IMG/VR virus record: IMGVR_UViG_2579778730_000001
Source: an uncultured virus (IMG/VR IMGVR_UViG_2579778730_000001)
Lineage: Duplodnaviria; Heunggongvirae; Uroviricota; Caudoviricetes
Length of the DNA: 64,000 nucleotides
Strand: one strand, 5' to 3'
A model generated the notes under the pieces. That model did no database searches. It had not been told where the DNA came from and worked only from the letters and a program-made list of their open reading frames with translations. Made by a program: the position numbers and the translations under genes. The number at the start of each line of letters is the position of its first letter. The stretch's first letter is position 1. Below are positions 31,709 to 60,434 of this stretch, piece by piece.

Positions 31709-31716
31709 GTCATACC

Positions 31717-34255: not shown

Positions 34256-34291
34256 AGGCTCTCCCTGCGGATGAGTTGAGATAGACCTGCA

Positions 34292-36122: not shown

Positions 36123-36986
36123 TCAGAAGAAGAAATCCCAGACGGCGCGGGCCACAGAGACCACGGTGGTGCGCACGGCCTGAATGACGGCCCGCACTGG
36201 TGTGGATATCAGAGGAAAGGCACTGATGCTATCGAGTAGAGCACCGACGGTTTCACCAAAATCGCTTCGAGCCTGTTCCCGGACTACCGTCGTGCGAAAG
36301 GAAGGCTGGAGTTGCGACACCACCGGGCTGGTGGCCTCACGTGGCAGGCACTTAATCATCCGCTCGGCCATCACCCTAAGCCCCCATTGTAGACGGACCG
36401 ACACAGCACACACCGGATGTACGGGCTGGAACAGCTCATGCAGCAGGCAGATTTTGCGGCTGATATTCTGCTTCTGCGCGGTGGACAACGGTCCCCCACC
36501 GCTGGTGGGTTCGGCCTTGTCCGACTGGCTTATAACAAACAGCACCTTATGCCGGTATGCCTCCCCAATCACCTGATGATAAAAGTGCTCATCCACTGCC
36601 AGTGCCCGGTCATCAGCCTTGATCAACCACAGCACTAGGTCGAGGCGAGAAAGCTGCTCTCGGTACAGCGCAGCATATTCGTTATCGCGAGCGCCACTTT
36701 CGCCCACGCCGGGTAGATCCATCAGCGTCATATGGCGGTCGCCAACCTGCAGTCGAAAGCGCAGTGGCTCACGTGTACAGGCCGCGACATCGCTGACCGG
36801 TGATACCTCACTGGCAAACAGGGCATTGCAGAGTGAGGATTTACCGGCACCGCTCTTACCCATAATGCCGATTACTGGCTCGTAATGGGTTAACTGATTT
36901 ATCTGCTGCAATATACGTTCAGACACCCACTGTGGCAGGCCAGCAAGCGATTGCTGAAACGACTTCAAACCTTCAGAATTGTTCAT
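36123..36986 (-). CDS. Era-like GTPase (YfjP/YkfA/YeeP family)
   Basis: GKSGAGKSS G1, DLPG G3, SQSDK G4. Confidence 0.92.
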   Translation of the reverse strand: MNNSEGLKSFQQSLAGLPQWVSERILQQINQLTHYEPVIGIMGKSGAGKSSLCNALFASEVSPVSDVAACTREPLRFRLQVGDRHMTLMDLPGVGESGARDNEYAALYREQLSRLDLVLWLIKADDRALAVDEHFYHQVIGEAYRHKVLFVISQSDKAEPTSGGGPLSTAQKQNISRKICLLHELFQPVHPVCAVSVRLQWGLRVMAERMIKCLPREATSPVVSQLQPSFRTTVVREQARSDFGETVGALLDSISAFPLISTPVRAVIQAVRTTVVSVARAVWDFFF

Positions 36987-44009: not shown

Positions 44010-44149
44010 TTCGTTGCGTCAGTCGCTTATGCCCACAGGGCTAACAACACGCAATCAGTGCACTGCGAAAGCCCTTCCATGTTCCACTTTCTTTCCTGGC
44101 ACTTACCAAATCAGCAAATCAGTGGCCGATATTGATGAGTGCTAAAATG

Positions 44150-44183
44150 CAGATAACCAGAAGCTGTAGCTTCTGGTTATCTG
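44150..44183. repeat. Perfect 16-bp inverted repeat
   Basis: cagataaccagaagct-gt-agcttctggttatctg, 6 nt after the UvrD stop. Confidence 0.85.
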
Positions 44184-44189: not shown

Positions 44190-46313
44190 TTACTCGCTTT
44201 CAGGCTCCAGTAAAAAACTAGGTTTACCGTAAGACGAAACAAACAATCCTTTTACCGCGCGCGTTGCAGCCACATGGAGCAACGCTCGTTCATTAAATAA
44301 TGCATCGCGCTGTTCTACAGGGTCATCAGATGCAATTGCTTTGACTTCCGGCACAACACCATCGTTGATGCCCGCAAGAAACACATACTGGAACTCCAAC
44401 CCCTTAATGCGGTGCATCGTTGCCATACGCACACCAGGGCGTTGATCACTATCACCACTATCCTGACCTAAATTATAGGTCTCGATTCCAGCATCATTCA
44501 GAGCAGAAGCATAACGCTCGTAAGCATGCTTCGTACGAGCGGTAATGCAGATATCCTGGGAACGGACATCATTGGCTAACAACGCCTGAATTTGCTTGAT
44601 AATCGTCGCAGCCTCTTCTTTAAAATCTGAAGCATGAGTGATCATGGGTTTTTCACCATGAAGCAATGATAAATAATCGTTGCTGGCATCAGTTTCACCA
44701 TCCAGGTTGTCAACCTTAACGCCGGTTAACAACCCGACAGCAAACTGTCGCGTCTCTTCTGTAGTCCGGTAGTTAATTTTCAGTTTTTTACTACGGCGCC
44801 CACGAACGTTAATCCCACACTGACCTAGAACGACTTTATTGCGGTAAATACGCTGATGTCCATCACCCACGATAAAGAGATCGTTAGGAGACTCTGGAAC
44901 CAGGCTACGAATAAGGGTAAAGGCCGGTGCGCCTATATCCTGAGCTTCATCGACTACGATACTGCTATAAGGCAATTGCACCTGTTTTTCTTTAAACAGA
45001 ATGATAGCCTCATGCATGGCATCTCCCATCTCTCGCAGTTTGGCTCGCGCCATTTGTGCCCGGAACTCTTCGAACACAGGCCAGATTTTCGCACGCTGAA
45101 TACGGGATAACGCCGTGCCACGACCAATACGACTCACCTTCAGATATTCTTCACGGCTGTAAACCGCATTCGGCTGAACAACACGTTGCCACTCTTCAGA
45201 ATAAAAGTTATCCGGTAATCCCAATTCAGCAGGAACTTGCTGCAAGGCATAGTTCCAGCATTTACGTCGCCCTTCATCGCTGTCATAGACCACGCGGAAA
45301 TCATATCCATGGCGTTTAAGCTGCTCGCTCATCCAGGCATCAATGTTAACAACTTCAATACGCGCCATCTCCTCACGGCTACACAAACGCTGGAGGTTGG
45401 CGCGAATATCCGCCGCCAGGTTACGGGTGAAGGTTGTGAACAGAACTTTTTTACCGGGTTTATCGGCCAGGCGTTGGGATAACCAACGTGCACGATGCAT
45501 CGCAACAACTGTTTTACCCGTGCCTGCACCACCTAACACTCGCACCGGACCATTTGCCGGAGACTCCACCAGTTTTCGCTGGCTCGGGTGCAGGAATACA
45601 CGCCATTTTTCCAGTGGCGCATTGAGCATTTGCAGTAGCTCCTGTTCATTTTCAACGACATGGAAACGACGTTTACTTCTCTCAATTGCCTCAATAAAGT
45701 CGTTGGTATCAACAGGCTCATCACGGTGATCGTTAAACTCCTCCAGCACTTCCTGGTAATCCAGACCTTCTGCCAGCCAGTGTAGGGGCTCCCAGGCTTC
45801 TGCCGGCATCACGCTTTCCAGCTGATTCAGCCCTGTGGTATCCACAAGAGCCATCACCTGCTCAATAAACACAGGAGGAACACCCAGCGCGAGGATCTGC
45901 TCTGCCGTATACGCAGCAAAGAGTTTGGGTTTATCGACAACAGTCGGCTCGGGGGTAGGTTTGATATAGCTGGTATCAATCACCTGAATCGCACCGGTTA
46001 CCGGGTGAATCGCACATTCGTGTCGCCGCGCCCAGTCGTAGGCTTCGTCGTGCTTATCCACCCACATCAGCATATACAGAGCACCCTGCTCAGGTTTCAG
46101 GACGATCCCCCGGTAGGTTTGGTCTATACGCACGGAATGCACATTATTGCTGCGTGCATCGTGGATCTTTTCGTAGTTCAGCCCATTACTCGTCGGATCC
46201 TGGCGGAACTTAGAGATGAATTCCTGGACCTTTTTTTGCTGCGCTTTAGGAATCCGCGCAAAAGCCCCCAGAAAACCATCAGAAAGTGCCACCTTTGGCG
46301 TTGGAATCGTCAT
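44190..46313 (-). CDS. UvrD/REP-like SF1 helicase with N-terminal RelE/ParE-like domain
   Basis: GGAGTGKT, VDEAQD, GDGHQRIY, NYRT, TMHRIKGLEF, VAATRA; N-terminus SDGF...QKKV...SVRIDQTYRGI. Confidence 0.88.
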   Translation of the reverse strand: MTIPTPKVALSDGFLGAFARIPKAQQKKVQEFISKFRQDPTSNGLNYEKIHDARSNNVHSVRIDQTYRGIVLKPEQGALYMLMWVDKHDEAYDWARRHECAIHPVTGAIQVIDTSYIKPTPEPTVVDKPKLFAAYTAEQILALGVPPVFIEQVMALVDTTGLNQLESVMPAEAWEPLHWLAEGLDYQEVLEEFNDHRDEPVDTNDFIEAIERSKRRFHVVENEQELLQMLNAPLEKWRVFLHPSQRKLVESPANGPVRVLGGAGTGKTVVAMHRARWLSQRLADKPGKKVLFTTFTRNLAADIRANLQRLCSREEMARIEVVNIDAWMSEQLKRHGYDFRVVYDSDEGRRKCWNYALQQVPAELGLPDNFYSEEWQRVVQPNAVYSREEYLKVSRIGRGTALSRIQRAKIWPVFEEFRAQMARAKLREMGDAMHEAIILFKEKQVQLPYSSIVVDEAQDIGAPAFTLIRSLVPESPNDLFIVGDGHQRIYRNKVVLGQCGINVRGRRSKKLKINYRTTEETRQFAVGLLTGVKVDNLDGETDASNDYLSLLHGEKPMITHASDFKEEAATIIKQIQALLANDVRSQDICITARTKHAYERYASALNDAGIETYNLGQDSGDSDQRPGVRMATMHRIKGLEFQYVFLAGINDGVVPEVKAIASDDPVEQRDALFNERALLHVAATRAVKGLFVSSYGKPSFLLEPESE

Positions 46314-49300
46314 TTGTCACCTCCGGACAGATGCTGCAATGTATTTTCGTCAATTGGCCCGAATGCAACGTGCCAACCTTTACTTGCGAATAAAGCAGTA
46401 AACTCCTGATTATCAATAATCAAGGCTTGCTTTTGTAATGGCCAGGCGAGATCGGCTTCTGCAATAATTTCGCCATCGTCATGCTGCAATTCATATCCAA
46501 CCGTCGGTGCCGGTAGTGATAACGACTGAAGCAAAGCGATTTCTTCTGCGCCCAATAAGCCAAACTCAAGTATTTCTGCCCAGCTCTCGTCAGGCTGAAT
46601 ATCCACTACAACCGAAGTCTGCATTTTTACCGTTTCAGCCTCCTGCGGTAAATGAACCGCTTTACGGCTGGTAAATGTCATATCTGGCAGGAACTGCAGT
46701 AAATTCACCATCCACCAGAAACCGTTAAATCCGGCTTCATAGCCATCATCCTGGGAATAACGATCGTCAAAGCAAATATGCAGCCTCAACCAATTTCGCA
46801 TTTGTTCAATGCTTGTCGTTGATTTAATGGCTTGTTGCGGTACAACAGCTGCCAGCTCAATGAACTGTTGTGATGAACTACAGCTATCCAGTAAACCACC
46901 AAATACAAAAGGTTCATCAGGCAAAAGTGCATTCAACCGATAAGCGGGAGCGTTCTCCTGCATTTCATAGGCGTACTTTTGTTTGGCTCCAGTATCCTGC
47001 GACTTTTTAGGATCCAGCCACACCCAGGCAAAGGCAGCGGCCATTTTCTGCCATAGCATAGTTTTATTACCGGGATCAGAGAGATAATCGAGTAGCAGTG
47101 CAAAACTGTTTCTCTCCCGGAATGAACCTTCAAGCGTAGCAAAGTTTGTATCATGGAACAGGTTATAAAACTTAGGCTGTTTCATATCCGGATTATGGCC
47201 AAGCCCCATAACATTCTGTACATGTTTAATGCCTTGTTCTTGAAGGTCAGCCCAGGTCAGTGTCCATACCCAAAAATTACCGCTGTCTTTAATCGCCTGC
47301 CGTTTTTGGACATCATCCGACACGCTATCTTTATGAAAAGCAAAACCATCCAGGAAAATTGCTACCGGTTTTATCTTTTCTGACTGCATCAGAGGGTAGA
47401 GCACATAATCTGGTCGGCTAAGGATGCCAACCCCTTCTTTAACCCCTAAATCAATCTGTGCTTTGAGATGCCAGCTCATCGCCGGTTCTGTACGGGTATT
47501 AATAATCCAGCCTGCATTCTGATGGGCATAACTCCGGCTCACGAGAAGATTTTTGTTATCCTGCAGGCAGTGAATGAACCGTTTTTCCAGTTCACTCCCC
47601 ATCATGGCATCAAGCGAAATGTTTTTGATGGAATCAATAACGCGTATAGAAGCACTGGCCTTCAGGATTTTCGCCAGTAAGAGACGCGCCTGATCTCTTG
47701 ATACATACTTCATACGCCCGCGGTCACGGTAAGCGTAAACACAGCGATAGCAGCCGTCTTTATGCGTATCATGGTTGCAGCTGCATTCCACTAGCGCCTT
47801 GTAGGCCAGCTCAAGTAATTTCAGAAGGTTGTCAGGTGTACGCATCAATTCTTTGAGTGAGCCAGTCCCCCCTGGTACGGTGTCGTAAATCACCAGATAC
47901 TGACGCCAGGATTCGCCCTCATTTTCCGGCTCGCGATACACCACGCCTTTCAGATGATCCACGTTACCTTTGAAGTAATGTTTAAGCCCAAGCTGAATGG
48001 CTGCACCCAGGGAGGCTTCCACCACGCGATCGTTGCTGTAGCTGGTCACTGGCAGCAGGATACGCAATGCCTCAGATTCCAGTTGGCGATAAAGGTAGAG
48101 ATAATCTTCAAACTTCGCTTTTTCGGGTTCAGCGCGATATTTACAGCTCAGGTCATGACGAGGTTCATGATCGCGAGGGCGCTGCACCATGCCGCAGCCG
48201 AGGCAAACTTTAAACCCGGTGCGTTTCTTTGCCTCTCCTGCGATCATCAGTTCATTGGCATCATCCGCCATTTTGCCAAAGTTGATATCTCGCAGAGTCA
48301 CTTTGCTCAAAAACTCAAAGCCAAACGGGATTTCTCCTTCATCAATGGCATAAGCGGCCGATACATCCTCTTTTTCGAAGCTGACCAGCAGCTGTCGCTG
48401 GAAGAATGCCGGTTCTCGGCTATCGCTCTCATCACTGATCTGGCTGTCCCGGGCGCTTGAGCGGGCATAAACCTGGCGAAGCTTCAGTAACGTCGTTTTT
48501 TGTCCGGCATCAGCCCAACCTGGTGTGCCGCATTTAGGGCAGTATTTATGCTGATCGCCGGTCTGATCGATATTCTCGCTGTAGTTACAGTGGCTGCAAA
48601 TACGCCAGTTTTCAGGCTCAGACAATTTAAGATCAATCTGTTCGATTTCAACTTTATGCCCGCCCGCATAGAAGTTATTCAACGGGGCCAGTTCAGCCAG
48701 CGCCGTTGATGCCGGACGTTCGTATTCGTAGGTCGTGTTCTGATACTCACGCGTCTCCCCACCGTCTTTACGCCGCCACAGCACAGAACGCAGCGTAATA
48801 CCGGCCTCCGGGAAGGCATAGTTGGGAAGTAATCCTTCATCGGTGAGGAAATTAAGCGTTTGCTTGTTATTGATCTGGTTCACCAGGGCCATCAGCGCCT
48901 GACGTTCCGAAGTCAACTCGCGCATATCGCTGTCAAAGTTTTGATCGTGCGGATCGCTCTCCAGCTTGTCGATACTGCGCTTGAGTTTATCAATCCGGGA
49001 ACGCAACGATTTGCGATCTTCCACCAGCAGTTTTAATGCTTGTTCGATACGTTGAACCAGAGAACGCTGCCCTGATGCCCCTTGCAAATATGACAGTAAC
49101 TGTAGACGAGTGTCTTCCGTAAGATCCGGGAAGATGGACGAAAACTGCTGAGCAATATCCGCATGATGTTGTTCAACATAACGCAGGAAGTTATAAGGGA
49201 ACCCAGACTTGTGTCCAAACTCCAGCTCGTCCAGCATCTGCTTCACGTTTTTGCTGATAGCAGATGCCGGGACGCCGGTTTTCACCCAGTTGTCCATGCA

Positions 49301-52300
49301 GAATGCGGCCAGCTGACGCTCCAGGATAGCCGTTGCGTTCAGGAACACACCAGGGGCCTGTACCTGCCCTTGCATCATCTCCAGAGGCTCTTCAAAGAAG
49401 AACTGATCGTGCGGGTTCCCCTCAGCCACCGTGATGTTAAGTGCATTGCCGTCTTTACGCCCGGCACGACCAGTACGCTGTAAGTAATTAGCCTGCGCGG
49501 GTGGAACAGAACAGAGTAATACCGTAGAAAGGTCACCCACATCGATACCCATCTCCAGCGTCGGTGTTGCCGAAAGCAGGTTTATATTCCATGGCTGTTT
49601 ACCGCGGTAGAACGATTGTTCCGTAGCCTCACGATCTTCACGGCTCAGTAATCCGGTATGCTCTGCCCCCTGAACACGAGCGATGTCCATATTATCCCAG
49701 TGCCAGGTCACTGTATTTTCAGTTTCCTGATAGCGGCCTTCACAGCGCAGAGAAAGACATGGCGCGTTTCGCCAGTGCCACCCCTGATCGGCCGGTGCCC
49801 GAACAACCTCACGACAGCAAGAGCAGTTTAGCTGAACAACATCTCGGCTCACTACCAGCGCTGAAGGTACTAGCCCCCAAGCTTCTTTGCCTTTTGTGTC
49901 AAAGTCTTTTACCAACCCGGCCATTTTTAGTGTCGCAAACAGACGTCGTAAAACCGTCTCGGCCAGGCTGCTGATAAACAGATTATTGCCGTTGCTGAGC
50001 GTTCGGTTGATCCAATGCTGATACCAGCTGGGGTTGGATTTCGCACCAATCAGACGATGGAAGCCATTTATTTTTTCAAACGAGGCATAGGCCGGTTTAC
50101 GCGTTTTCGGACCAATAGATGGCATATAGCGTGAAGTTCGCTCCTTCTGCGTCATCATAAAGGTCTTGCCCTCACGACGATAACTTTCGAAAGCCGGATG
50201 CAGAACAGCTCCCGCCTGCCGCTGATGCCAAAGAACGCCAATCACCAGGTGTGCCACCTGCTCAACGCTGACCCCAACCATTTCGTCACCCAGCTCTTCG
50301 ACAAGCTGTTGGTGAAGCGTCGTTATCGCTGAATTGAAACGTGCAACATCAATTCCTGCAGCTGCGTAACCGGTGGCCTCCAGCGTACGTCCAATTCGTG
50401 CGCGTAGGGTAAATTCGCTGTATACCTCCCAGTCGAGACGAAGAGAAACCAGCTCCGGTAAATCGGAACTCTCTGCCAGCTGGCCTTCGTTCTTCAACGT
50501 CTGGTAATCGTTCATCCACTGCATGTTGGGCGCGATGAAGCTCGCGGCAAAATGAGCATCATCCGGTGAACGTTCACGCGTCTGCTGGCAGACACGTGTC
50601 GCAAAGGCATCCAACGGTAACGTTTCTTTTTCACCCAACACGCTGGCGATTTGTCCGCGTACCATCAACGGCCAGGTTCGGGCGGTAAAGAAACTGGCGC
50701 GGTGTGCGGCATCCTGTACCGAGTCAGAAAACGTAATCAGTTTTTTATGTTCGTTGAACTGGCTGCCATAAAGCTGATGGATCATCACCGCCGACAGGCT
50801 GGCTGCCTGTGACCCAAGAATCGAAATACCCTGTTTGCTGTTGCAGTACGGGCATTCGTTGGCAAATTCCAGCTCATCCTTACGCTCTTTGAGCATATCC
50901 GGGATAAGTACTTGTAGCAGACCAGTATGGCCACAATGCCCGCACTGCACGTTAGATTGCTGATTGAGCTTTAAACAGGAAGGGCACAGCTTCTGGTGAA
51001 CACCGCTGACAGGTTTATCGTTGTTATCCGGGAAGGCCAGTACAATAGAACGGCCTTTTTCGAAGAACTGACGATAAATACCGTCCAGATCAGTTTCGAG
51101 TTGAACGCTCTGACCATGGCGCAGGCTCGCCCACCCGGTAGCATGGCAGTCACGACAGTGAATAACGGGAAGATAATGTTCGCGATCTTCCACCGCGACA
51201 TCATCAGCAAAAACAAGCTCAGGTGTTTTTGACACGCTGGCAACCAGGCGGCGCATCTCGCGCAACCACAGCTGAGAACGTAGTTGCACAAAAGGCAGTA
51301 CGGGCCTCGCTTTGTTCACCTGTAGGCGCTTTTCCCGATCTTCCTGTTTTTCTGGAACGTCCAGGCGCGCCTGGGCAATCAGTGCCAGAATGCTTTGCAG
51401 CACGCGGGTTGCATGCCCGGCGCTTTCCGCCAGCATCACCTGGAGATTTTCCAGGCACTGCTGTTCCGACAAAATTCCCCCCTGCAAATCCTCAAGGAGT
51501 ACGTGCAGGATGCTGTGGCGACGTAACAATGAGCCCAACTCAATACGCTTTTCACGTCCGAGATCGCTGTCCAGATCGGCAGGTAATTGCAGTGAACTAT
51601 TCGGGAACCACAGCGGAATTTGTCCGTTCAGATAATCTACCGGGCTGGCGTACGTTTGCGGATCCAGCGCTGCGCTGACATCCTGTCCCGGATACTGACT
51701 GTACTCGATGGTATAACCTTGCAGATACTCTGCCGCCGTGTAGCGATCTTCGCGAATAACCGCGTCATCGCTAAACGGCTGATCAAAGATCGTTTTTGCG
51801 TAATCGAGTAGTTGTCCCAGTTCGTCACCTACGGTAGCCGACGTCCCCACGCAGGCAAAACGCTTGTCATCAACCCCGATATGATGCTTTAAGCGGCGCA
51901 CCAGACAGGCCAGATCCGACCCCTGCGCACCATCAAACGTATGCAGTTCATCCACCACCAGATAACGCAGTGACCCTGGCTGGTTATAGCGCCAGAGCTT
52001 CTGATCGCCGGGGCGCATCAGCAGGTAATCCAGCATCTTATAGTTAGTCAGCAGGATATCCGGTGGGTTCTCGCGCAGGGTATGTTTGCAGGTGATGACT
52101 TTATCTGCAGACATCTTTTTGCTGGGTTCGATTTCACTATCGCCGACAAACAGGCCGACGGTTACTTTGCCATGCAACTGCGGATCGCTGGCGATAGTTT
52201 TGGCGAAACGGCTGGCCTGATCGGTTGCCAGAGCGTTCATCGGGTAAATGATGATCGCTTTAACACCGGCCTCTGATGCCCCCGCACAATGGTTAAGCAG

Positions 52301-52651
52301 CGGGAACATAAAACATTCCGTTTTACCAGAACCCGTCCCGGTCGCCACCAGCGTCGGTTGAGGCATCTCGATACCCAGGCGCTGAAACGCCTGCGCCTGA
52401 TGCGCGTGCGGTGGGAACGGCAGCGTCAGGTTAGGGAAGAAGTTCAGCGGTAAGTCACTTTTACGAAACGGCAGCTGAGCGGAAAGATACGGCCCTTTCA
52501 GCAGCGTTTCCGGCTGGGACAGAAATTGCTCCAGCATCGAGACGTTATTATTTTCTTCACCATTAAACAGCGGGCTGTTAAGCGGGAAGGCTGCCCGTAA
52601 AAAGGAAGCAACGCTGTCGGCAACCTGCCGACTGACAACAGAAGGCAGCAT
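46310..52651 (-). CDS. YprA/DrmA-B-like DEAD/DEAH helicase with DUF1998 Zn cluster and C-terminal PD-(D/E)xK-like nuclease
   Basis: TGTGSGKT, PMNALATDQ, DELH, TLEMGIDVG, QRTGRAGR, YDTVPGGTG, CSC...CYRC, RPDY...IFLDGFAFH. Confidence 0.88.
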   Translation of the reverse strand: MLPSVVSRQVADSVASFLRAAFPLNSPLFNGEENNNVSMLEQFLSQPETLLKGPYLSAQLPFRKSDLPLNFFPNLTLPFPPHAHQAQAFQRLGIEMPQPTLVATGTGSGKTECFMFPLLNHCAGASEAGVKAIIIYPMNALATDQASRFAKTIASDPQLHGKVTVGLFVGDSEIEPSKKMSADKVITCKHTLRENPPDILLTNYKMLDYLLMRPGDQKLWRYNQPGSLRYLVVDELHTFDGAQGSDLACLVRRLKHHIGVDDKRFACVGTSATVGDELGQLLDYAKTIFDQPFSDDAVIREDRYTAAEYLQGYTIEYSQYPGQDVSAALDPQTYASPVDYLNGQIPLWFPNSSLQLPADLDSDLGREKRIELGSLLRRHSILHVLLEDLQGGILSEQQCLENLQVMLAESAGHATRVLQSILALIAQARLDVPEKQEDREKRLQVNKARPVLPFVQLRSQLWLREMRRLVASVSKTPELVFADDVAVEDREHYLPVIHCRDCHATGWASLRHGQSVQLETDLDGIYRQFFEKGRSIVLAFPDNNDKPVSGVHQKLCPSCLKLNQQSNVQCGHCGHTGLLQVLIPDMLKERKDELEFANECPYCNSKQGISILGSQAASLSAVMIHQLYGSQFNEHKKLITFSDSVQDAAHRASFFTARTWPLMVRGQIASVLGEKETLPLDAFATRVCQQTRERSPDDAHFAASFIAPNMQWMNDYQTLKNEGQLAESSDLPELVSLRLDWEVYSEFTLRARIGRTLEATGYAAAGIDVARFNSAITTLHQQLVEELGDEMVGVSVEQVAHLVIGVLWHQRQAGAVLHPAFESYRREGKTFMMTQKERTSRYMPSIGPKTRKPAYASFEKINGFHRLIGAKSNPSWYQHWINRTLSNGNNLFISSLAETVLRRLFATLKMAGLVKDFDTKGKEAWGLVPSALVVSRDVVQLNCSCCREVVRAPADQGWHWRNAPCLSLRCEGRYQETENTVTWHWDNMDIARVQGAEHTGLLSREDREATEQSFYRGKQPWNINLLSATPTLEMGIDVGDLSTVLLCSVPPAQANYLQRTGRAGRKDGNALNITVAEGNPHDQFFFEEPLEMMQGQVQAPGVFLNATAILERQLAAFCMDNWVKTGVPASAISKNVKQMLDELEFGHKSGFPYNFLRYVEQHHADIAQQFSSIFPDLTEDTRLQLLSYLQGASGQRSLVQRIEQALKLLVEDRKSLRSRIDKLKRSIDKLESDPHDQNFDSDMRELTSERQALMALVNQINNKQTLNFLTDEGLLPNYAFPEAGITLRSVLWRRKDGGETREYQNTTYEYERPASTALAELAPLNNFYAGGHKVEIEQIDLKLSEPENWRICSHCNYSENIDQTGDQHKYCPKCGTPGWADAGQKTTLLKLRQVYARSSARDSQISDESDSREPAFFQRQLLVSFEKEDVSAAYAIDEGEIPFGFEFLSKVTLRDINFGKMADDANELMIAGEAKKRTGFKVCLGCGMVQRPRDHEPRHDLSCKYRAEPEKAKFEDYLYLYRQLESEALRILLPVTSYSNDRVVEASLGAAIQLGLKHYFKGNVDHLKGVVYREPENEGESWRQYLVIYDTVPGGTGSLKELMRTPDNLLKLLELAYKALVECSCNHDTHKDGCYRCVYAYRDRGRMKYVSRDQARLLLAKILKASASIRVIDSIKNISLDAMMGSELEKRFIHCLQDNKNLLVSRSYAHQNAGWIINTRTEPAMSWHLKAQIDLGVKEGVGILSRPDYVLYPLMQSEKIKPVAIFLDGFAFHKDSVSDDVQKRQAIKDSGNFWVWTLTWADLQEQGIKHVQNVMGLGHNPDMKQPKFYNLFHDTNFATLEGSFRERNSFALLLDYLSDPGNKTMLWQKMAAAFAWVWLDPKKSQDTGAKQKYAYEMQENAPAYRLNALLPDEPFVFGGLLDSCSSSQQFIELAAVVPQQAIKSTTSIEQMRNWLRLHICFDDRYSQDDGYEAGFNGFWWMVNLLQFLPDMTFTSRKAVHLPQEAETVKMQTSVVVDIQPDESWAEILEFGLLGAEEIALLQSLSLPAPTVGYELQHDDGEIIAEADLAWPLQKQALIIDNQEFTALFASKGWHVAFGPIDENTLQHLSGGDK

Positions 52652-55600
52652 CAGGCGCTCTCCTTATCTTGTGCAAAGAATGACCAGGCAACTTTATAGT
52701 CGTCTTCACGGTCGGGTTTGATAAAAGGTGCCTGCCAGGTGACGGTTCGGCGCTCGCCTTCGTCGCTGCGGGTATAGTCATCAAAAGTGACGCTGACAGT
52801 GCCGGTTTGCAGATGCTTGACATCATCCCAGCCGATGGCTTGATCGGTGCAGTCGCCGCCAGTCCATTCAGGGCTGTCGACGTTAAAGACAAAACCATTT
52901 TTCAGGTCCGCTTTACGTGCGGTACGCGGCAGGCCGACGCCCACCAGCCCTTTGCTTGGGGTAAAAATAATGCGGCCGTTTTGATCGTACCAGGTGTCCG
53001 CTTCGTACTGGCGCATGACCGGGAACTGAACGCGATAGATGGTGAGCAGTTCTTCAAGAGTTAACCCTAGCGCCTGCGCCACCAGTACGTCGATTTCCAC
53101 CAATGCCTGGCGGCGGCTGTAGTCGGAGCGTAAAGCGCAGTTACGCTGCCACTCAGGGGTCAGATTAGCGAAGAAATCTTGTGGAAGTTGCGGGAGATTG
53201 CGGCTCCAATATTCTTTTTTGAATTCAGTTATATAAACGGAGCTCCACAATTTTTTATAATGCTCTGTTATACTAGCCAAACTCATCGACCTTGCATGTA
53301 AAGATGCTCTAAACTTCTCATTATTTAATAATGGGAGTTGATTAACTAACGACTGATTTGCATGCCCCATTCCAGTACACTTGACTCTATAATCTACGAC
53401 AATGGACAAAGACATTGAAAAGAAATCGAGCAAATCAGAGTTATTTTTAAAAATAGTACTTAGACAAGTATTAATATGGGAAATACCTGGAGGTATTATA
53501 GTTGCGATAAAAGTCCGCTCAGAAGTTGAACCAATCATTTCCCGATTAACAAATCTATAACTATTAGTCACAGGAAGAACATTACCATTCCAAGAAACTG
53601 TCGGAATTCGACTTAGAAAATCGGAATACTCACAATTAGGAATATAATTAACCCTAGGAATATAATTATCAGGAATGGTCATCAAATCAATAGAGTCATA
53701 GTCACTATTTAATTTGCATACGCTCCGTGGAGTTTTATAATAAGCATTACCCACAAAGAAATGCGGACCAGATAATATCCATTGAGAAACACCAGAAGGA
53801 AACTCTGTTTTCCTTTTAGTTGTACCATCTCTTTGAGCAAATGTTTCATCAAACATCACGGTAGAATAATAATCGCTTTTTATTGAAGATAGTTTTTTTG
53901 ATTTAACATCAAATTTTCGTAGAACATCCAGTAATTGTACCGTATGTAAAGCTGGAAGCCTCGCATGCAGTTCCGGGGTTGAATTATCATCAAATATTCC
54001 CGCAAACAAACGTAACTCATCAATAGTAATTGTCAATACTCTTGATTTATGGGGGGATATATTCCAATTTATTTTCAGCTTTTCTCCATTGTAAGATTCT
54101 TCTTTGATGCCAGGGATCTCCCCTTGATTGTCATGCAACAAACTTGAATCTATCGTATGAACAGAGAACAAATTTGACATGTGCGTAAACGAAGGCGAAT
54201 CTTGCAATGGGCCATAAATATTAATGCTAAATGTTGTTGCATGATGAACCTCGGGGAAAAGTCCTAATTCATTTTGAAATTGATAATGGTCCCGCAAACG
54301 GCCGTAAATTTTGGCGCGAAGATACCCCGCTTTGCTATCATCATAAACACCATCCGGGTGCAATAACCCTGAAACACCACGCTTCGAAATAAGCCGCCAT
54401 GAAATTGGTAAAAAACATTTATACAAATTTGTTTTTTGCCCTAATAAGCATGAAAAATTTTGCTGACTATTAAGATAGTTCTGTAATCCAACAGCGGATT
54501 CAAACTCGCTCCGCCAAGCATCTTCTAGTCCATGGATCCGTGCAAAAGATTCCTCTCGCAGAGAGGATATATTGGCAGCGCTAAGATTGCTCAGTACAAG
54601 CTCAGGTTTATAATCTCCCAATATTCCGCTTTCTTCCCATACAACCTTCAGCCATGGCGGGTTTCCGAGCATCAGGTCAAAACCGCCGCGCTCGGCGAAC
54701 AGATCGCAGAATTCCAGATCCCAATGGAAGAAACGATGTTGCTTCTTCAGCGCATCAACAATCGCCAGACGCGGCAAATGACGGAACAGCACATCGGTTT
54801 TCAGGCGACCTGCGCCGGAAAACAGCGAAGACTCTTCACGCACCATGCCCTCGTCGGCAAACAGATCGCCGGTAGCCTGTTCTGTACTTTCTATCACTCT
54901 TTCCGTGACGACAATACCGTCAAGCAGAGTCTCCATCTCCATCAGCCACATACCGCGATCCGGCAGTTCATCCGCTTTGTCGATTGGCCAGAACCATAGA
55001 GCACACCAGTAGTCCATCACCCAGCGCAGTTTCTGATAGCTACTGTTATCTTCAAGGCGACCGCTGAAGGTTTCATCTTTGCTACTTAAAGAAGAGCGAA
55101 CTTGAGCCGTGCTTTCCGCAGGCCAAACCGGGTAATTGTCGGCGGTTTTCTGGCGCTCGGCTTTCAGCTGCTGACGGAACGTGTTCCAGAGTGCTTCCAC
55201 TTTGCTACTGATGCGCTGCACATCGACAATCTCATGCGGTGCAAAGCTTTTGGTAAACTCTTTGCGCCAGCTATCCAGCGCTTTGAAATCATCCGGATAG
55301 CGCTGCTTAACGGTTTTGTCGCTGTAGTTGGCCATACCGCTGTCCGGCAGCAGGAAGTGGAAAATCTGCTTCTCTTCGCGCGGAATATTCATCGCCAGTT
55401 CAGCCGGTTCGCTGTTAAGCCAGCTCGGATCTTTCGCTTTTTTGTAGGTCAGCTCGCTCTTGTTGAACACCTGACGGCGTGCGCCCACCAACGAGTTGCC
55501 GCAGTGCAGCTGGTAGCCAAACCACGGTACAAATGCATCGCCGCTGATGGCGTTCAGCCACAGCGACACTTCCGCCAGCTCCACCGCCACCGGGTTTAAG

Positions 55601-57573
55601 TCCACGCCGAATACGTTGTTGTCGGCAATGTACATCTTCACCCGTTGCAGCTCCTGGGTGTAGCGATCCTGAGGAATACGGCGACCTTCCGCCTGCTGTT
55701 TGTGGAACAGGTAAGCTTCCGCCAGCTGGTTGATGGCTTCGTTAAGGAACGCTGCGCTGCCCATCGCCGGTTCGCACACGGTGAGGTTTAATATGGCGTC
55801 GGCTTTGGCGTGCGGATCGGTAATCGGATCAATTTGCTCTTTAAACAGCTCTTTCAGGGCATATTTGACTAACGAGCGGGTCAGCACTTCCGGGGTGTAG
55901 TAAGAGGCGGATTTTTCGCGGTCACGCCCGGCCATGCGATAGATAAAGCTGCCTTTACGGTGAATACGCAGGCTGCCGTCTTTTTCGTAGACCTTCTCGT
56001 CGTCGTGGTATTTGCCGATCTCGTCTTTGCTGACGAAGTAGCCTGTCTCCAGCTCGTTAAACTCTTCTCCGGCTTTTTTGACCTCGTAGAGGTCATCACT
56101 GGCAAAGAACCCTCGGTAAGAGAGCAGCGCTTCATACACTGCACCTAACTGGTTGATACCCAATTGGCGATAGGAGATACGCCCCCGGCGATTAAAACGT
56201 CCTTTACCCGGGCGGCTTAACGACATCGCCTGAATAATTTGTTGCAGGGTTTCGTTGCGGAACACCACACGGTTAAGAATACGGGTGTTATTCGCTTCAA
56301 AAAGATGACTTTCCAGACGCGGCACGCTGAACTGATGGCTGTGAATAGTGATCCGGTCGCCGCTCTCCAGGTCGCTCTGCATTTTCACGCCGCCGCTGTA
56401 GCCGTCACGCACCAGTTTGAACAGCATATTCAGGCTATCGTGGAAGTAGCGCCCATTGCGATCTTCTTCGCTGGTCAGCGGGATCATCTCCAGATCGCGC
56501 AGCGTTTCCAAGCTGTAGCCCTGTAGATAAGTTTTGGCGGTCATCGGCGCATAGCCTAGTTCCGGGCGCGCTTCGATATAGAACAGGAACAACAGACGAT
56601 ACATATACCGCAGGCATTCGCGGCTCAACTCATCCGGGTTAATAGCACGTTTCCCGGTATAATAAGCCAGCTCGTTGTCGATGAGATAACGCATCGCTTC
56701 ATTACCCAACAGCTCAATGCTCTCACGCAGGGCATATTTCAGATCTTCCGACACGCCAAACGCATGTTTGTGCGAATTGTCATCCAGCGAATCGAGGTAC
56801 GGCGCACCGCTGCCTGGCAACAGCGAATCTTTGTGTAGCAATACCGACGTGGCTTTCAACGTATCCGTTTCACGACGGCTTAAAATTTCTTCAAAGTCAA
56901 AGCGCAGCAGGCGGTTTTGCGCCCACTTAGTACGATCCAGCAATAACAGCTGGCGGTTACCGAGCAACAGCACAAAACGCGGTGGTTCATTTTGCGTGAA
57001 GACCGCCGTGGAGAGCAGATCCTGCCAGCTACGGTATTCGCCGTTCGCTTTTTTACGCAGACTGTCGCGCTTATGTTTATCGGTATCTGCCGGGAACTGC
57101 GCAGTCAGCAGCGACAGCGCCAGCGGATCCAGCGTTCCTTCATCCTGATCATGTGCTTCAACAATCCACAGCCACGGACTACCGTCGGTACTATTGTAAC
57201 GAGCCAACACTGGCAAAGGCGTATCGTCATCCAGCATCTGTATGTGCGGATTGAGTTCATAACCCAATGCCTTTAATAGCGGCTGCCAGCGAGTGCGCTG
57301 ATCGGCAAGACGCTGCGGGATCTGGCGCTGTTTTTCATGATCAGTGAGTCTACGGAAAAACTCTGTCGCCAGGCTGTTAAGCTGGTTCCACGGCGCGCGG
57401 TAACCCGCCTCAACCTCTTTGCCCTGTTCACGGGCAGCGCGTTCAGCTTCGCGAGCGGCATTTTCCTGCTCAATCCAGGGCTCCAGAACATCGCGGATGT
57501 CGCTGGTAAAGACTTCGCCCAGATAATGGTTGGAGTAAAATTCGTTTTCGTTATTAATACCGACCAGCGCCAT
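52651..57573 (-). CDS. Large N6-adenine DNA methyltransferase (Eco57I/PglX-like, gamma class)
   Basis: SASYYTPE, motif I CEPAMGSAAFL, GVDLNP, motif IV GNPPW. Confidence 0.9.
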   Translation of the reverse strand: MALVGINNENEFYSNHYLGEVFTSDIRDVLEPWIEQENAAREAERAAREQGKEVEAGYRAPWNQLNSLATEFFRRLTDHEKQRQIPQRLADQRTRWQPLLKALGYELNPHIQMLDDDTPLPVLARYNSTDGSPWLWIVEAHDQDEGTLDPLALSLLTAQFPADTDKHKRDSLRKKANGEYRSWQDLLSTAVFTQNEPPRFVLLLGNRQLLLLDRTKWAQNRLLRFDFEEILSRRETDTLKATSVLLHKDSLLPGSGAPYLDSLDDNSHKHAFGVSEDLKYALRESIELLGNEAMRYLIDNELAYYTGKRAINPDELSRECLRYMYRLLFLFYIEARPELGYAPMTAKTYLQGYSLETLRDLEMIPLTSEEDRNGRYFHDSLNMLFKLVRDGYSGGVKMQSDLESGDRITIHSHQFSVPRLESHLFEANNTRILNRVVFRNETLQQIIQAMSLSRPGKGRFNRRGRISYRQLGINQLGAVYEALLSYRGFFASDDLYEVKKAGEEFNELETGYFVSKDEIGKYHDDEKVYEKDGSLRIHRKGSFIYRMAGRDREKSASYYTPEVLTRSLVKYALKELFKEQIDPITDPHAKADAILNLTVCEPAMGSAAFLNEAINQLAEAYLFHKQQAEGRRIPQDRYTQELQRVKMYIADNNVFGVDLNPVAVELAEVSLWLNAISGDAFVPWFGYQLHCGNSLVGARRQVFNKSELTYKKAKDPSWLNSEPAELAMNIPREEKQIFHFLLPDSGMANYSDKTVKQRYPDDFKALDSWRKEFTKSFAPHEIVDVQRISSKVEALWNTFRQQLKAERQKTADNYPVWPAESTAQVRSSLSSKDETFSGRLEDNSSYQKLRWVMDYWCALWFWPIDKADELPDRGMWLMEMETLLDGIVVTERVIESTEQATGDLFADEGMVREESSLFSGAGRLKTDVLFRHLPRLAIVDALKKQHRFFHWDLEFCDLFAERGGFDLMLGNPPWLKVVWEESGILGDYKPELVLSNLSAANISSLREESFARIHGLEDAWRSEFESAVGLQNYLNSQQNFSCLLGQKTNLYKCFLPISWRLISKRGVSGLLHPDGVYDDSKAGYLRAKIYGRLRDHYQFQNELGLFPEVHHATTFSINIYGPLQDSPSFTHMSNLFSVHTIDSSLLHDNQGEIPGIKEESYNGEKLKINWNISPHKSRVLTITIDELRLFAGIFDDNSTPELHARLPALHTVQLLDVLRKFDVKSKKLSSIKSDYYSTVMFDETFAQRDGTTKRKTEFPSGVSQWILSGPHFFVGNAYYKTPRSVCKLNSDYDSIDLMTIPDNYIPRVNYIPNCEYSDFLSRIPTVSWNGNVLPVTNSYRFVNREMIGSTSERTFIATIIPPGISHINTCLSTIFKNNSDLLDFFSMSLSIVVDYRVKCTGMGHANQSLVNQLPLLNNEKFRASLHARSMSLASITEHYKKLWSSVYITEFKKEYWSRNLPQLPQDFFANLTPEWQRNCALRSDYSRRQALVEIDVLVAQALGLTLEELLTIYRVQFPVMRQYEADTWYDQNGRIIFTPSKGLVGVGLPRTARKADLKNGFVFNVDSPEWTGGDCTDQAIGWDDVKHLQTGTVSVTFDDYTRSDEGERRTVTWQAPFIKPDREDDYKVAWSFFAQDKESA

Positions 57574-57575
57574 AA

Positions 57576-60434
57576 TTAGCCCTCCGCTCCGGTGATTACA
57601 GCAATAACCTGAATGTAGGGCTCTTTTTCGGTGGTCATGGTGTCCTCAATCCATTGGATATAGCTGTCAAAATTGTGTTCGATTTCGCGCTGACGTTGTT
57701 CTTTGCGGCTCTTTTTCACTGAAAGCTGCTGTTTATTATCGGCAAAATCCAGTTCCAGTTGGCTCAGCTGACGCCCACGCAGAACGTCCAGCTTTTGCAG
57801 ATGTTCACTGAGTTGCTGATTGATATGCTCCTCAAAAGCATTTCGATCGTGAACAAACACATCCCGCGCATGGGCGATTGCCGCTTCCAGCAGAACCTGC
57901 TGGCGTTGGTGGTTACGATCTTTACCACCACTGTTAGTCAATTTGCTTCTCAATTGCGGATGTCGTTTCAGAAACTCAGCAAAAGGCAGGCTACCGCTTA
58001 ACGTTTCGTGGTTAAAGCTCACCACCAGCCACGGATTCACCATCGGGTGCGACTTACGGTTCGGGAACAGCCCGGAAAGGATGAAGTGATCTTCATCAGG
58101 CTCAAACAGGTGCGGCAGGCGCATCACCGGAGCCTGGTGGCGACCAAAGGCGGACTGAATTTTGTCGTCTAACCACTGCACGACCGGGTTAATTTGCCAG
58201 AGATACTGCACATCGGGCCAGGCATGTTGCTCACCACGCGCACGCGAAATTGATTCCGTGATAACGGTTTTGTCCTGGCTTAGATAAAGCTGCCAGTTTT
58301 CCGGCGCAATTTCCAGCGGTAACTGGTTAAAGCGACGGCGTAACTCCTCCGGTGCGACCAGCGATAAGGTGTTATCAGGTAAGGTATCGTATTGCACGGT
58401 CTGACCGCTGGCCTTCAGATAGCCCAGCGCTTTTTCGCAGTATGCCTGCTCATTAGCAAACAGGCTAATGTCGCTTTCGGTCACGGCTGAGGCATCGTTG
58501 GACACTGCGCTGCAGATTTCGCCAAACAGGTCGTTTCCAGTATTTTCAGTGACATTGCTATTCAACAGATCATCGAACAGGCTGGCACCATCGTCCTGCA
58601 TCATGAATTCAGCAACCTGCTCTTCTTCCTCTTCCTGCGTAAATTTGCCAGTAAATTCGGAGCTGTCACCGATATTCTTCTGCGCCTGTTCGTCTTTATT
58701 GATCAGCACTTCCAACACACGCATATCACCGTTGATCTGCGGTTCACTGGCTTCAGTCAGCAAGTAACGGATCTGTGGCTGGTGTTTTTGTCCGTAGCGG
58801 TCAATACGTCCGTTACGCTGCTGGAATACCATCAGCGACCACGGAATATCGAAGTGAATCATTTTATGGCTGAGGTGATGCAGGTTGATACCTTCAGACG
58901 CCACATCCGAGCAGATGAGCAGGCGTAGCGGAGACTGGGTTTTGCCAAACGCTTCGACGGTTTCCATCAGAACTGTATCGCCCTGATCGCCTCGCAACGT
59001 GGCAATTTGATCGTCTTTCAGCTTGAGATCGGAACGCAGTTGCTGCCCAAGGAACTCGAGCGTTTTGATACTCTCGGTAAAGATCACCAAACGATCTTCT
59101 GTGTTATTCGCTTTCCAGCGGAGATCGTTACGGATGGTCTCCAGCAACAACTGATACTTGCTGAACTGACTGGCATCAATATTATTGAGCGCCAGCAGCA
59201 GTGACTCTAATTCGTTAATCTGGCTCTGACTGTTTATTTCTTTGCGGTTCTCAAGCCGCTTCAGGCGGTTAGCCACCACGCTGGCACATGCCATTGGACT
59301 TGAGAACAACGCTTTTTCGAGCGCAATTTTGAACAGGCGGCCTTTGTTTGATTGCGAGTCTTCATCATCGTCGTCACGGAACTGGCTCTCAACCAGCCGA
59401 CGATAAGCTTCTTCTTCGGCCCCGGTTGCCGGGTGCGTGAGTTTGACGATATTACGTTCCGGAAACTCGCCAGCCATCTGATCTTTCACGTCTTTTTTGA
59501 AGCGACGCACAACCAGATTTTTATCGGCAAAATCGGCGTATTCATACTCTTTCGGATTAGCAATGGCCGTCGGGTCGAGCATATTCATCAGGCTGGCAAA
59601 ACTTTCAGCCTTACCGTCATGCGGCGTGGCCGAGAGCATAATCAGCGTATCGCTGCGTCCGGCAAGCAATTTTGCCAGTTTGCTGCGCAAGGAGCTGGTC
59701 CCACGTTCAGCGACGTTATGCGCTTCATCGATAACAATAATATCCCACCAGGCATTTTCCAGGTGGTGGCGATATTCGATGTCCTGTTTCAGAGTATCGA
59801 TGGAGATAATGGTCTTATCGAAATAGTGAAACGGGTTGTGGTTGGTTGGGATACGGTTACGCACCTTTTGTAAACCAGCGGAATCAAGCCGCGTCAACGG
59901 AATAGCAAAACGGCTCCAGAACTCTTTCTGGAATTGCGTGAGCATGGATTTAACCGCCAGCACCAGAATGCGTTTGCCACGTCCGCGGCGAATCAGCTCT
60001 GAAACCAAGATACCGGCTTCCAGCGTTTTACCCAGCCCTACCGCATCAGCAATTAATATCCGCTGGCGCGGCTGCGCCAGTGCCATGCGCGTGGGATCGA
60101 GCTGAAAGGGCATGGAATCCATCGCAGCCTGATGTCCAAAATGGACTTTGCTGTCAGTCGGGACGCGTTGGCGTAGCTGGCTCTCTATGTACAATTGAGC
60201 CGCCTGGTAATTGGCTGACTCATCTTCCACCAGATTTGTTTTTGCTGGATCAAGAATCTCGACTTTTTGCTCCAGCTTTGTCAGAAATAGCCCTTCTTTA
60301 CCGCGTACCAGCTCCGAAATTCCATCACAGGTCAGCAGGTGACCACCATCTCCGCTGTCATCCGCCCGGCGAATGCGCCACTCTGCATCACGAATAACCA
60401 CCCGCATCCCAGGTGCATAATTTTGCTTATTCAT
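57576..60434 (-). CDS. SNF2-family helicase (DrmD/BrxHII-like)
   Basis: IADAVGLGKT, DEAH, LSATPH, SEGINL, QRNGRIDRYGQ. Confidence 0.9.
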   Translation of the reverse strand: MNKQNYAPGMRVVIRDAEWRIRRADDSGDGGHLLTCDGISELVRGKEGLFLTKLEQKVEILDPAKTNLVEDESANYQAAQLYIESQLRQRVPTDSKVHFGHQAAMDSMPFQLDPTRMALAQPRQRILIADAVGLGKTLEAGILVSELIRRGRGKRILVLAVKSMLTQFQKEFWSRFAIPLTRLDSAGLQKVRNRIPTNHNPFHYFDKTIISIDTLKQDIEYRHHLENAWWDIIVIDEAHNVAERGTSSLRSKLAKLLAGRSDTLIMLSATPHDGKAESFASLMNMLDPTAIANPKEYEYADFADKNLVVRRFKKDVKDQMAGEFPERNIVKLTHPATGAEEEAYRRLVESQFRDDDDEDSQSNKGRLFKIALEKALFSSPMACASVVANRLKRLENRKEINSQSQINELESLLLALNNIDASQFSKYQLLLETIRNDLRWKANNTEDRLVIFTESIKTLEFLGQQLRSDLKLKDDQIATLRGDQGDTVLMETVEAFGKTQSPLRLLICSDVASEGINLHHLSHKMIHFDIPWSLMVFQQRNGRIDRYGQKHQPQIRYLLTEASEPQINGDMRVLEVLINKDEQAQKNIGDSSEFTGKFTQEEEEEQVAEFMMQDDGASLFDDLLNSNVTENTGNDLFGEICSAVSNDASAVTESDISLFANEQAYCEKALGYLKASGQTVQYDTLPDNTLSLVAPEELRRRFNQLPLEIAPENWQLYLSQDKTVITESISRARGEQHAWPDVQYLWQINPVVQWLDDKIQSAFGRHQAPVMRLPHLFEPDEDHFILSGLFPNRKSHPMVNPWLVVSFNHETLSGSLPFAEFLKRHPQLRSKLTNSGGKDRNHQRQQVLLEAAIAHARDVFVHDRNAFEEHINQQLSEHLQKLDVLRGRQLSQLELDFADNKQQLSVKKSRKEQRQREIEHNFDSYIQWIEDTMTTEKEPYIQVIAVITGAEG

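Follow-up and report, generated by a model that had tools for sequence, protein, structure and literature searches.

An ARMADA Type II anti-phage operon, very likely intact and horizontally acquired, on a satellite-phage-like island

The DNA analysed here (the window) is a stretch of 64,000 nucleotides (nt) recorded as an uncultured virus of the class Caudoviricetes (IMG/VR record IMGVR_UViG_2579778730_000001). Between positions 44190 and 60434 it carries a four-gene operon, armA to armD, that we regard as virtually certain to be ARMADA II. With high confidence, we also take it to be an intact ARMADA Type II anti-phage system that was acquired horizontally on a satellite-phage-like island, and the operon is likely to be functional. 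ARMADA II has already been defined, catalogued and tested in E. coli, and the window copy is an example of a known system. The genes, with lengths in amino acids (aa), and the features that border them are as follows.

57576-60434, minus strand: armA, SNF2/RapA-like (BrxHII/DrmD-like) helicase, 952 aa
52651-57573, minus strand: armB, PglX-like N6-adenine DNA methyltransferase (MTase), 1640 aa
46310-52651, minus strand: armC, YprA-family DEAD/DEAH helicase with MZB/DUF1998 and a C-terminal nuclease region, 2113 aa
44190-46313, minus strand: armD, RelE-like domain fused to a UvrD/GajB-like superfamily 1 (SF1) helicase, 707 aa
60435-60657, minus strand: intergenic region 5' of armA, presumed promoter region, 223 nt, which moves with the cassette
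44143-44182, minus strand: terminator-like hairpin just 3' of the armD stop codon, a 14-bp stem and then CAUUUUAG

ARMADA Type II was defined by Bell et al. (bioRxiv 2025; PMC12458937), and a second paper deals with the same architecture (Li et al., mBio 2026; PMC13463889). The definition is a strict gene order: a BrxHII-like SNF2 helicase, a PglX-like MTase, a YprA-like helicase and a fusion of a RelE-like domain with a GajB-like helicase. ArmA is described there as BrxHII/RapA-like and ArmC as a YprA-like helicase with a C-terminal Vsr-type nuclease (PMC12458937). The window operon fits the definition in gene order and in domains, and five of the sequence-level features that define the type are present in it. 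We compared it with three annotated E. coli loci, SMS-3-5, EDL933 and ATCC 8739, to which ArmA is 94.1%, 94.1% and 93.7% identical, respectively, ArmB 93.8%, 80.8% and 81.6%, ArmC 90.5%, 90.3% and 90.3%, and ArmD 93.6%, 93.9% and 93.9%. The ArmA and ArmC alignments are gapless and join proteins of equal length, and small length differences occur only in ArmB and ArmD. The EDL933 proteins used, WP_001041505.1 for ArmA and WP_000937974.1 for ArmC (identity over all 2113 residues), are the ARMADA II reference proteins of the preprint (PMC12458937 Table S2). Table S1 of the preprint, with at least 7,546 rows under the Type II label, enters the ArmC of Mangrovibacter (L013), 98.5% identical to that of the window, as an 'ARMADA Type II helicase'. 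Judged by its sequence, ArmC falls in the ARMADA II clade of YprA-family helicases. The first-pass annotation of the window had tentatively offered the ARMADA type II label; gene order, domains and orthology to the preprint references agree with it.

All eight residues needed for defence in E. coli are retained (8/8): K136 and D236 of ArmA, G605 and N971 of ArmB, K110 and D234 of ArmC, and K266 and D454 of ArmD, the last pair numbered K267 and D455 here after a one-residue insertion that shifts them by +1. According to the preprint, mutation of each of these residues reduced or abolished defence (PMC12458937). The Walker A motifs read GLGKT (ArmA K136), GSGKT (ArmC K110) and GTGKT (ArmD K267), and in ArmB the catalytic NPPW lies at 970-973 (N971 in GNPPW), with G605 of the SAM-binding GxG in EPAMGSAAF. 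The intact catalytic motifs claimed in the first pass (Walker A, NPPW and the nuclease signature described below) can thus be read directly. Its proposal of an anti-phage system with three motors finds support in work on the orthologous systems of E. coli, which are reported to give direct, non-abortive protection that requires all four genes, the three ATPase sites and the NPPW site (PMC12458937, PMC13463889). Among the experiments described in the preprint, a bacterial artificial chromosome (BAC) clone of E. coli ARMADA II protected against 13 of 80 phages with a non-abortive phenotype and lost its defence on deletion of any gene. ARMADA II alone protected when cloned into BL21-AI and in Druantia-deleted ATCC 8739, and in ATCC 8739 itself, the native background, protection extended to 30 of 66 phages (PMC12458937). 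Single deletions of the four arm genes in EDL933 are reported to give phage-sensitive strains in every case (4/4; PMC13463889).

The reading frames are closely packed. Read directly from the sequence, the armA/armB junction is TAA-TT-ATG (a 2-nt gap), the armB/armC junction TGATG (a 1-nt overlap) and the armC/armD junction ATGA (a 4-nt overlap), from which the four genes are translationally coupled. This reading and the list of open reading frames (ORFs) reproduce, on the minus strand, the four genes of 952, 1640, 2113 and 707 aa that had been noticed in the first pass, together with their gap and overlaps. The upstream intergenic region contains a single sigma-70-like site at 60623-60596, and promoter-like sites are not enriched (13 found, 16.6 expected in shuffles). 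The hairpin behind armD has a folding energy of -25.6 kcal/mol (z = -6.67), a stability equalled in 0 of 200 shuffles; its T run is too short for the consensus terminator scan to have flagged it. Ratios of nonsynonymous to synonymous substitution rates (dN/dS) against SMS-3-5, obtained by the Nei-Gojobori method, are 0.028 for armA, 0.054 for armB, 0.045 for armC and 0.033 for armD, and values of 0.03-0.05 imply that the arm genes are maintained by selection. By megablast the 16.2-kb operon has matches in 526 of the 5426 complete genomes of E. coli, all of them at 80-90% DNA identity, and in 521 of the 5426 at least 80% of its length is covered. Together with the low dN/dS, these 521 genomes put the operon far beyond chance.

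In Pfam, ArmA matches SNF2-rel_dom (9.9e-17) and Helicase_C, ArmC matches DEAD (5.2e-22), MZB (9.8e-13) and Helicase_C, and ArmD matches UvrD-helicase (6.7e-24) and UvrD_C (2e-23), with its helicase part at residues ~241-695. The leading PADLOC matches are DrmD (1.1e-99, 333 bits) and then BrxHII (5.3e-61, 205 bits) for ArmA, DruE3 (343 bits) and DruE1 for ArmC, with DrmA far lower at 48.7 bits, and GajB (4.5e-38) for ArmD. For ArmC 1641-2113 and ArmD 1-240, Pfam at E up to 5 returned chance-level matches only, and phmmer searches of the PDB with the ArmC C-terminus and the ArmD N-terminus returned rubredoxin at E 1.5 and nothing else. Because sequence searches were blind to the RelE and nuclease domains, both were folded with homologue alignments. 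The domains are placed as follows.

47738-48007, minus strand: MZB/DUF1998 domain of ArmC, residues 1549-1638 (Pfam)
47066-47602, minus strand: putative Vsr-type PD-(D/E)xK nuclease domain of ArmC, predicted active, residues ~1684-1862 (fold model and signature residues)
45969-46313, minus strand: RelE-like domain of ArmD, residues 1-~115 (AlphaFold2 model and Foldseek)

The AlphaFold2 model of ArmD 1-240 has a predicted local distance difference test (pLDDT) of 88.2 and a predicted template-modelling score (pTM) of 0.83. In Foldseek, the 14 best PDB rows are without exception toxins of the RelE/YoeB/YafQ/ParE type (14/14; template-modelling (TM) score on target 0.61-0.74), headed by 3bpq_B (E 9.1e-4, TM on target 0.73). 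Residues E48, R62, R68, H88 and Y92 are invariant among 35 aligned sequences, and we take this set to resemble the catalytic residues of YoeB. The same entry, 3bpq, is the preprint's HHpred match for the RelE domain of ArmD (PMC12458937), and on the predicted fold the RelE-like N-terminus is confirmed.

The model of ArmC 1641-2113 comprises three domains (pLDDT 87.4). In wide searches with VIA-align, model residues 44-222 match 3hrl (Z 5.3), I-Bth0305I (3r3p, Z 5.2), the RAP domain of FASTKD4 (Z 5.2) and Vsr itself (1cw0, Z 4.9, 102 residues aligned, 20% identity), and model residues 376-473 match the Vsr-like domains of PvuRts1I and AbaSI. The signature of the putative nuclease reads SRPD1748...D1768GFAFH1773K, i.e., PD...DGxxxH, and all 36 aligned homologues (36/36), some as little as 21% identical, have D1748, D1768, G1769, H1773, D1780 and R1784 unchanged. 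In the preprint, the HHpred match of E. coli ArmC to Vsr has E 5.2e-5 (PMC12458937 Table S2), and the signature in the window protein is consistent with that published assignment.

The distribution of the operon bears on both its unity and its mobility. A survey of one genome per species yielded 11 loci, seven of them enterobacterial, and armA-B-C-D stand in the same order in all seven (7/7). The co-occurrence of the genes in other genomes, a point raised in the first pass, is therefore seen both in these loci and in the E. coli genomes counted above. ArmC is 98-99% identical in Mangrovibacter plantisponsor, Citrobacter sp. FP75 and Enterobacter wuhouensis, 90% in Escherichia sp. E1V33, and 79% in Yersinia proxima, an Enterobacter metagenome-assembled genome (MAG) and Serratia sp. 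PL17. The other four of the 11 loci are distant (34-36% identity) or short; in one from Spirochaetia (L020:2-6861) an ArmC-like and an ArmD-like gene are adjacent (36% and 47% identity), and a Sphingobacterium MAG (L023:10001-19792) has ArmC-like, ArmA-like and ArmB-like genes in the ARMADA Type I order. Across species representatives, the cassette occurs sporadically: it is found in 0 of 1 other genome of the genus and, with ArmD at E <=1e-100, in 1 of the 300 other family genomes sampled. The 90% cluster of the window ArmD (814 members) includes names from Morganella, Klebsiella, Citrobacter, Raoultella and Salmonella.

Two neighbouring loci flank the operon.

38085-44009, minus strand: PDC-M27 A, B and C, a candidate defence system (460, 638 and 900 aa; PADLOC)
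60658-64000, minus strand: druE remnant of Druantia III, 3' part (PADLOC DruE3, 1099 bits)

The PADLOC matches to PDC-M27A (677 bits), PDC-M27B (923 bits) and PDC-M27C (1501 bits) are near end-to-end. The three products are an unknown protein of 460 aa, a PLD-domain protein (M27B, PLDc_2), whose PLD domain has no DrmC match in PADLOC, and an SNF2-type helicase. Homology to the three closest relatives (L013-L015) runs exactly from window position 60657 to 37991 at 95.5-99.7% identity; their upstream gene differs, with druE absent at this position, and in the Citrobacter relative the upstream ORF (L014:2-1957) belongs to no PADLOC or Pfam family. Given these homology limits, armABCD together with PDC-M27 is a 22.7-kb unit that moves between genera.

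Several pieces of evidence might suggest that the functional unit is this seven-gene array, armABCD plus PDC-M27ABC, with PDC-M27 in the partner role of Druantia III/Zorya II: (i) PDC-M27 lies directly 3' of armD in six of the seven enterobacterial loci, even where ArmC identity falls to 79%. (ii) The block common to the closest relatives begins at the promoter region of armA and stops shortly after PDC-M27C. (iii) PDC-M27 brings a PLD nuclease and a further SNF2 helicase. However, a 180-nt gap and a strong hairpin separate armD from PDC-M27A, E. coli ARMADA II works without PDC-M27, and linkage on a mobile island is no proof of cooperation; PDC-M27 is also unmentioned in the literature searched. 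We consider a cooperating array of this kind unlikely and prefer a four-gene ARMADA II operon. The recurrent linkage nevertheless suggests PDC-M27 as a possible synergy partner outside E. coli.

According to the preprint, ARMADA II and Druantia III are usually neighbours and synergise in E. coli (PMC12458937), and a DruE C-terminus lies 5' of armA in four of the seven enterobacterial loci. In this genome, the druE frame extends past the window to the window-equivalent position ~65946, the start of IS1; the truncated gene and the insertion lie within window 60658-64000 and L004:1-4713, the latter reaching window-equivalent ~66713. By tblastn, the 4.26-Mb assembly has a counterpart of E. coli DruE for residues 330-2104 only, at 90.3% identity; an IS1 transposase adjoins the break, and the RecA1 lobe (about residues 93-297) is lost. 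DruH, ZorA, ZorB and ZorE had no tblastn match in the whole assembly. As reported for EDL933, deletion of druH abolishes Druantia III defence (PMC13463889). Since both the RecA1 lobe and DruH are gone, and druH is needed in EDL933, Druantia III is very probably dead in this genome.

It could be argued from this loss that the operon, though intact, is silent or has no effect in its host, for instance because it depended on the Druantia III that is gone: a truncated DruE and a missing DruH would fit, as would the synergy that the two systems are documented to have in E. coli. Against this, ARMADA II alone protects in the BL21-AI clone and in Druantia-deleted ATCC 8739, the ORFs here are intact with dN/dS of 0.03-0.05, and the closest relatives lack DruE at this position, yet the operon is kept at 97-99% identity. 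A silent operon is thus quite improbable, and we retain the reading of a working ARMADA II. A natural copy lacking Druantia III and Zorya II, under strong purifying selection in a host other than E. coli, supports the self-sufficiency of ARMADA II.

The element that carries the operon resembles a satellite phage. Window positions 30788-36986 hold a 'moron' module of CbtA toxin, CbeA antitoxin, RadC, an ArdB-type antirestriction protein, YfjS/YafY, DUF932 and a GTPase, and beyond IS1, past the right edge of the window (L004:5199-11111), lie YfjJ/HUH-type Rep, DUF3987, Fic and an integrase. This makeup is that of the satellite-like elements described in the preprint (PMC12458937), which later Druantia preprints name SPIDER elements. 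The GC content of the island is ~47-53%, against 57% for the genome. The GC difference, the integrase and Rep, and the CbtA/CbeA/RadC/antirestriction module together argue for a foreign origin. Neither the window nor the 20 kb to its right yielded a tRNA, and the attachment site was not found. The host is another member of the Enterobacteriaceae, its DnaA being 92.5% identical to the E. coli protein. A gene for a KAP-family P-loop NTPase (L004:11836-14067) adjoins the island integrase, with Nu1-like and gpD-like phage remnants beyond it.

ArmB departs from the pattern of the other three proteins. In Pfam it matches an Eco57I-type MTase (5.3e-12), and in PADLOC REase_MTase_IIG (PDLC03614, 926 bits over residues 96-1558) followed by DrmMI (191 bits); a phmmer search of the PDB returned 0 matches with E up to 1, Pfam found nothing on residues 1-601 at E up to 5, and the Pfam family MmeI_TRD has no match on the window protein. 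A feature-level atlas search led to an MmeI_TRD cluster, named for a target-recognition domain (TRD), with a score of 0.91, and the Pfam domain MmeI_Mtase occurs in a few ArmB homologues. Together with the PADLOC-DB 2.0 label, these MmeI-family leads could be taken to mean that ArmB is a self-contained Type IIG restriction-modification (R-M) enzyme and that the helicases are accessory or belong to other systems. A nuclease domain was not found in ArmB, however, by Pfam on residues 1-601 or by the PDB sequence search; deletion of any single arm gene abolishes defence in E. coli, and the four genes are translationally coupled and co-inherited in 7/7 species loci. A stand-alone Type IIG enzyme is therefore very improbable, and ArmB is best treated as one subunit of ARMADA II.

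Its sequence has a mosaic structure, as follows.

53134-54696, minus strand: armB mosaic segment, putative target-recognition module, residues ~960-1480 (pairwise tables of 11 ArmB)
53944-54336, minus strand: armB mosaic block 1, residues 1080-1210, which reassorts independently
53134-53616, minus strand: armB mosaic block 2, residues 1320-1480, which reassorts independently

ArmB is only ~84% identical to the proteins of the three closest relatives, though ArmA, ArmC and ArmD are 97-99% identical there. In the alignment of the 11 sequences, residues 1-960 and 1480-1640 track the operon lineages, whereas ~960-1480, which starts at about the NPPW motif, does not. The two blocks assort separately: ArmB of ATCC 8739 agrees with that of Escherichia sp. 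E1V33 at 100% in 1320-1480 and at 51% in 1080-1210, whereas ATCC 8739 and the Mangrovibacter/E. wuhouensis type share 95-96% in 1080-1210 and 56-57% in 1320-1480, and EDL933 and Citrobacter FP75 share 97% and 55% in these blocks, respectively. Between the window and SMS-3-5, the synonymous divergence dS is 0.38 in the armB segment and 1.15, 1.22 and 1.15 in armA, armC and armD. With a dS about one-third of that of the rest, the segment must have been exchanged long after the backbones split, which indicates a recent swap of the armB segment across genera. Alleles were counted in E. coli genomes in which at least 80% of the 1.56-kb segment was covered: the EDL933 type is present in 338 of 526 genomes, the window type in 18 of 508 and the ATCC 8739 type in 6 of 526, which leaves at least about 160 genomes with other alleles or recombinants. 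In the mBio paper, island diversity is ascribed mostly to armB variation; in its text 'TRD', 'allel' and 'specificity' have 0 occurrences, and the variation is neither located nor interpreted (PMC13463889).

The position of the segment offers a clue to its function. In the gamma-class MTases MmeI and PglX, the TRD lies C-terminal of the catalytic motif. This domain order, the atlas lead to a TRD cluster and the MmeI_Mtase domain of the homologues are the grounds on which ArmB 960-1480 may be read as a target-recognition module. We give a little under an even chance to the joint proposition that the segment is a two-module specificity determinant, with blocks from an old shared pool recombined across lineages and genera, and that the window armB is a rare allele imported after its backbone had left the E. 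coli type. If so, ARMADA II would tell self from non-self epigenetically and by motif, as BREX or Type I R-M do, each allele writing its own N6-methyladenine (m6A) motif, and the two-module reading would contradict the published expectation of purely structure-based recognition. The mosaic points to ArmB as the specificity subunit, and its natural chimeras are ready for methylome work.

A mechanism can be outlined on this basis, tentatively, its main steps falling somewhat short of probable. ArmB would be the specificity subunit and would methylate adenines in a motif read by residues ~960-1480, marking host DNA as self. On incoming DNA without this mark, ArmB and the SNF2 translocase ArmA would license ArmC, a YprA-type helicase, which would load on DNA with single-stranded regions and cut it with its C-terminal Vsr-type nuclease. 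ArmD would add UvrD-type helicase activity, and its RelE-like domain might make it an RNase as well. Here the system would act without Druantia III; it is linked instead to the candidate system PDC-M27.

Several points weigh against parts of this account. The methylation-based self/non-self step, likewise proposed in the first pass, is one that we infer, as are the roles of ArmA and ArmD. The word 'methylation' has 0 occurrences in the main text of the preprint, which reports no methylation motif (PMC12458937), and the text of the mBio paper speaks of methylation only for other systems and reports no ArmB-dependent methylation (PMC13463889). The mBio authors expect that ArmC recognises DNA structure rather than sequence (PMC13463889); contrary to a structure-only expectation, the armB mosaic argues for a role of sequence as well. 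No later paper on the ARMADA mechanism was found in the literature search. Protection has been shown for the E. coli orthologues and is attributed to the window copy by orthology, with ArmB, whose activity is assumed, only 81-82% identical to both tested alleles and with the synergy partner of E. coli, Druantia III, very probably inactive here. For the nuclease, the fold matches to Vsr are coherent but weak (Z <=5.3, under the clear level of the tool), and Foldseek on the three-domain ArmC model gave no match at or below E 0.07. In 109 ArmB-like proteins, a set biased by having been picked for similarity to residues 1080-1480 themselves, mean pairwise identity is 47-67% in that region, against 30-47% in 41-200 and 761-920. 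Family-wide hypervariability of ArmB 1080-1480 was thus not seen in this biased set, and for this reason we term the signal lineage incongruence and not hypervariability.

Window positions 1-30463 are a P2-like prophage that directly abuts the defence island. Its genes include an integrase, CI- and CII-type regulators, the gpA replication protein, portal, terminase, capsid, baseplate and tail-fibre genes. Low-GC stretches lie at both ends of the prophage, at 1-2000 (35.5%, with a DUF4760 gene) and at 28001-30000 (41.5%).

The operon can finally be set beside the systems that it resembles. That its parts recall DISARM and BREX, as the first-pass annotation had noted, is borne out by the matches of ArmA to DrmD and BrxHII and of ArmB to DrmMI, the PglX resemblance being weak. 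The further idea that it is simply a class I DISARM or BREX variant, for which these matches (333, 205 and 191 bits) could be cited, is scarcely credible, since DUF1998 is fused into ArmC with no separate DrmB, no PLD-type DrmC is among the four genes, the score of 349.6 on the NCBIfam equivalog NF038317 DISARM_DrmD falls short of the cut-off of 610, ArmC matches DruE3 with 343 bits but DrmA with 48.7, PglZ, BrxC and BrxL were not found among the eight ORFs scanned, and the published tree gives ARMADA its own clade next to Druantia (PMC12458937). The first-pass view that the operon is neither canonical DISARM nor canonical BREX holds on the DrmD score and on the preference of ArmC for DruE, and its statement that PglZ/BrxC and separate DrmB/DrmC are lacking holds for the eight ORFs scanned with PADLOC.

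DISARM class I (DrmA, DrmB, DrmC, DrmD and DrmMI) shares with ARMADA II an SNF2 helicase, an N6-adenine MTase, a YprA-family helicase with DUF1998 and a presumed modification-linked targeting of DNA. It differs in that DrmB is a separate protein, whereas here DUF1998 lies inside ArmC and none of the four genes encodes a PLD-type DrmC; ArmC also carries a predicted Vsr-type nuclease and is closer to DruE, an extra RelE-UvrD protein is present, and the DrmD cut-off is missed. In Druantia III (DruH-DruE), DruE is the closest YprA-family relative of ArmC, but DruH is absent from ARMADA, the C-terminus of DruE is PLD-type and that of ArmC is predicted to be Vsr-type, and ARMADA adds an MTase, an SNF2 helicase and a UvrD helicase. 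With PglX of BREX and the MmeI-type (Type IIL) MTases, ArmB shares a gamma-class NPPW adenine MTase and a large segment C-terminal to the motif, although its match to PglX models is weak (21.7 bits in PADLOC, 25-27 bits in NCBIfam), and neither PglZ nor BrxC/PglY occurs in the eight ORFs searched with PADLOC and Pfam or in the 34 flanking ORFs searched with Pfam. In E. coli, the MTase active site of ArmB is reported to be needed for defence and not for self-protection only (PMC12458937).

The closest counterparts are the ARMADA II loci of E. coli (EDL933 z5899-z5902, ATCC 8739 and NCTC 12900). The window differs from them in its non-Escherichia enterobacterial host, in its ArmB 960-1480 allele, which is unlike those of EDL933 and ATCC 8739 (81-82% identity overall, 41-65% within the blocks), in the presence of PDC-M27 3' of armD, where the three E. 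coli loci inspected, SMS-3-5, EDL933 and ATCC 8739, do not have it, and in the state of the usual E. coli partners, Druantia III being represented by an IS1-truncated DruE and Zorya II being absent. Common to all are the same four genes in the same order and the same satellite-like carrier island with its CbtA/CbeA/RadC/ArdB module.

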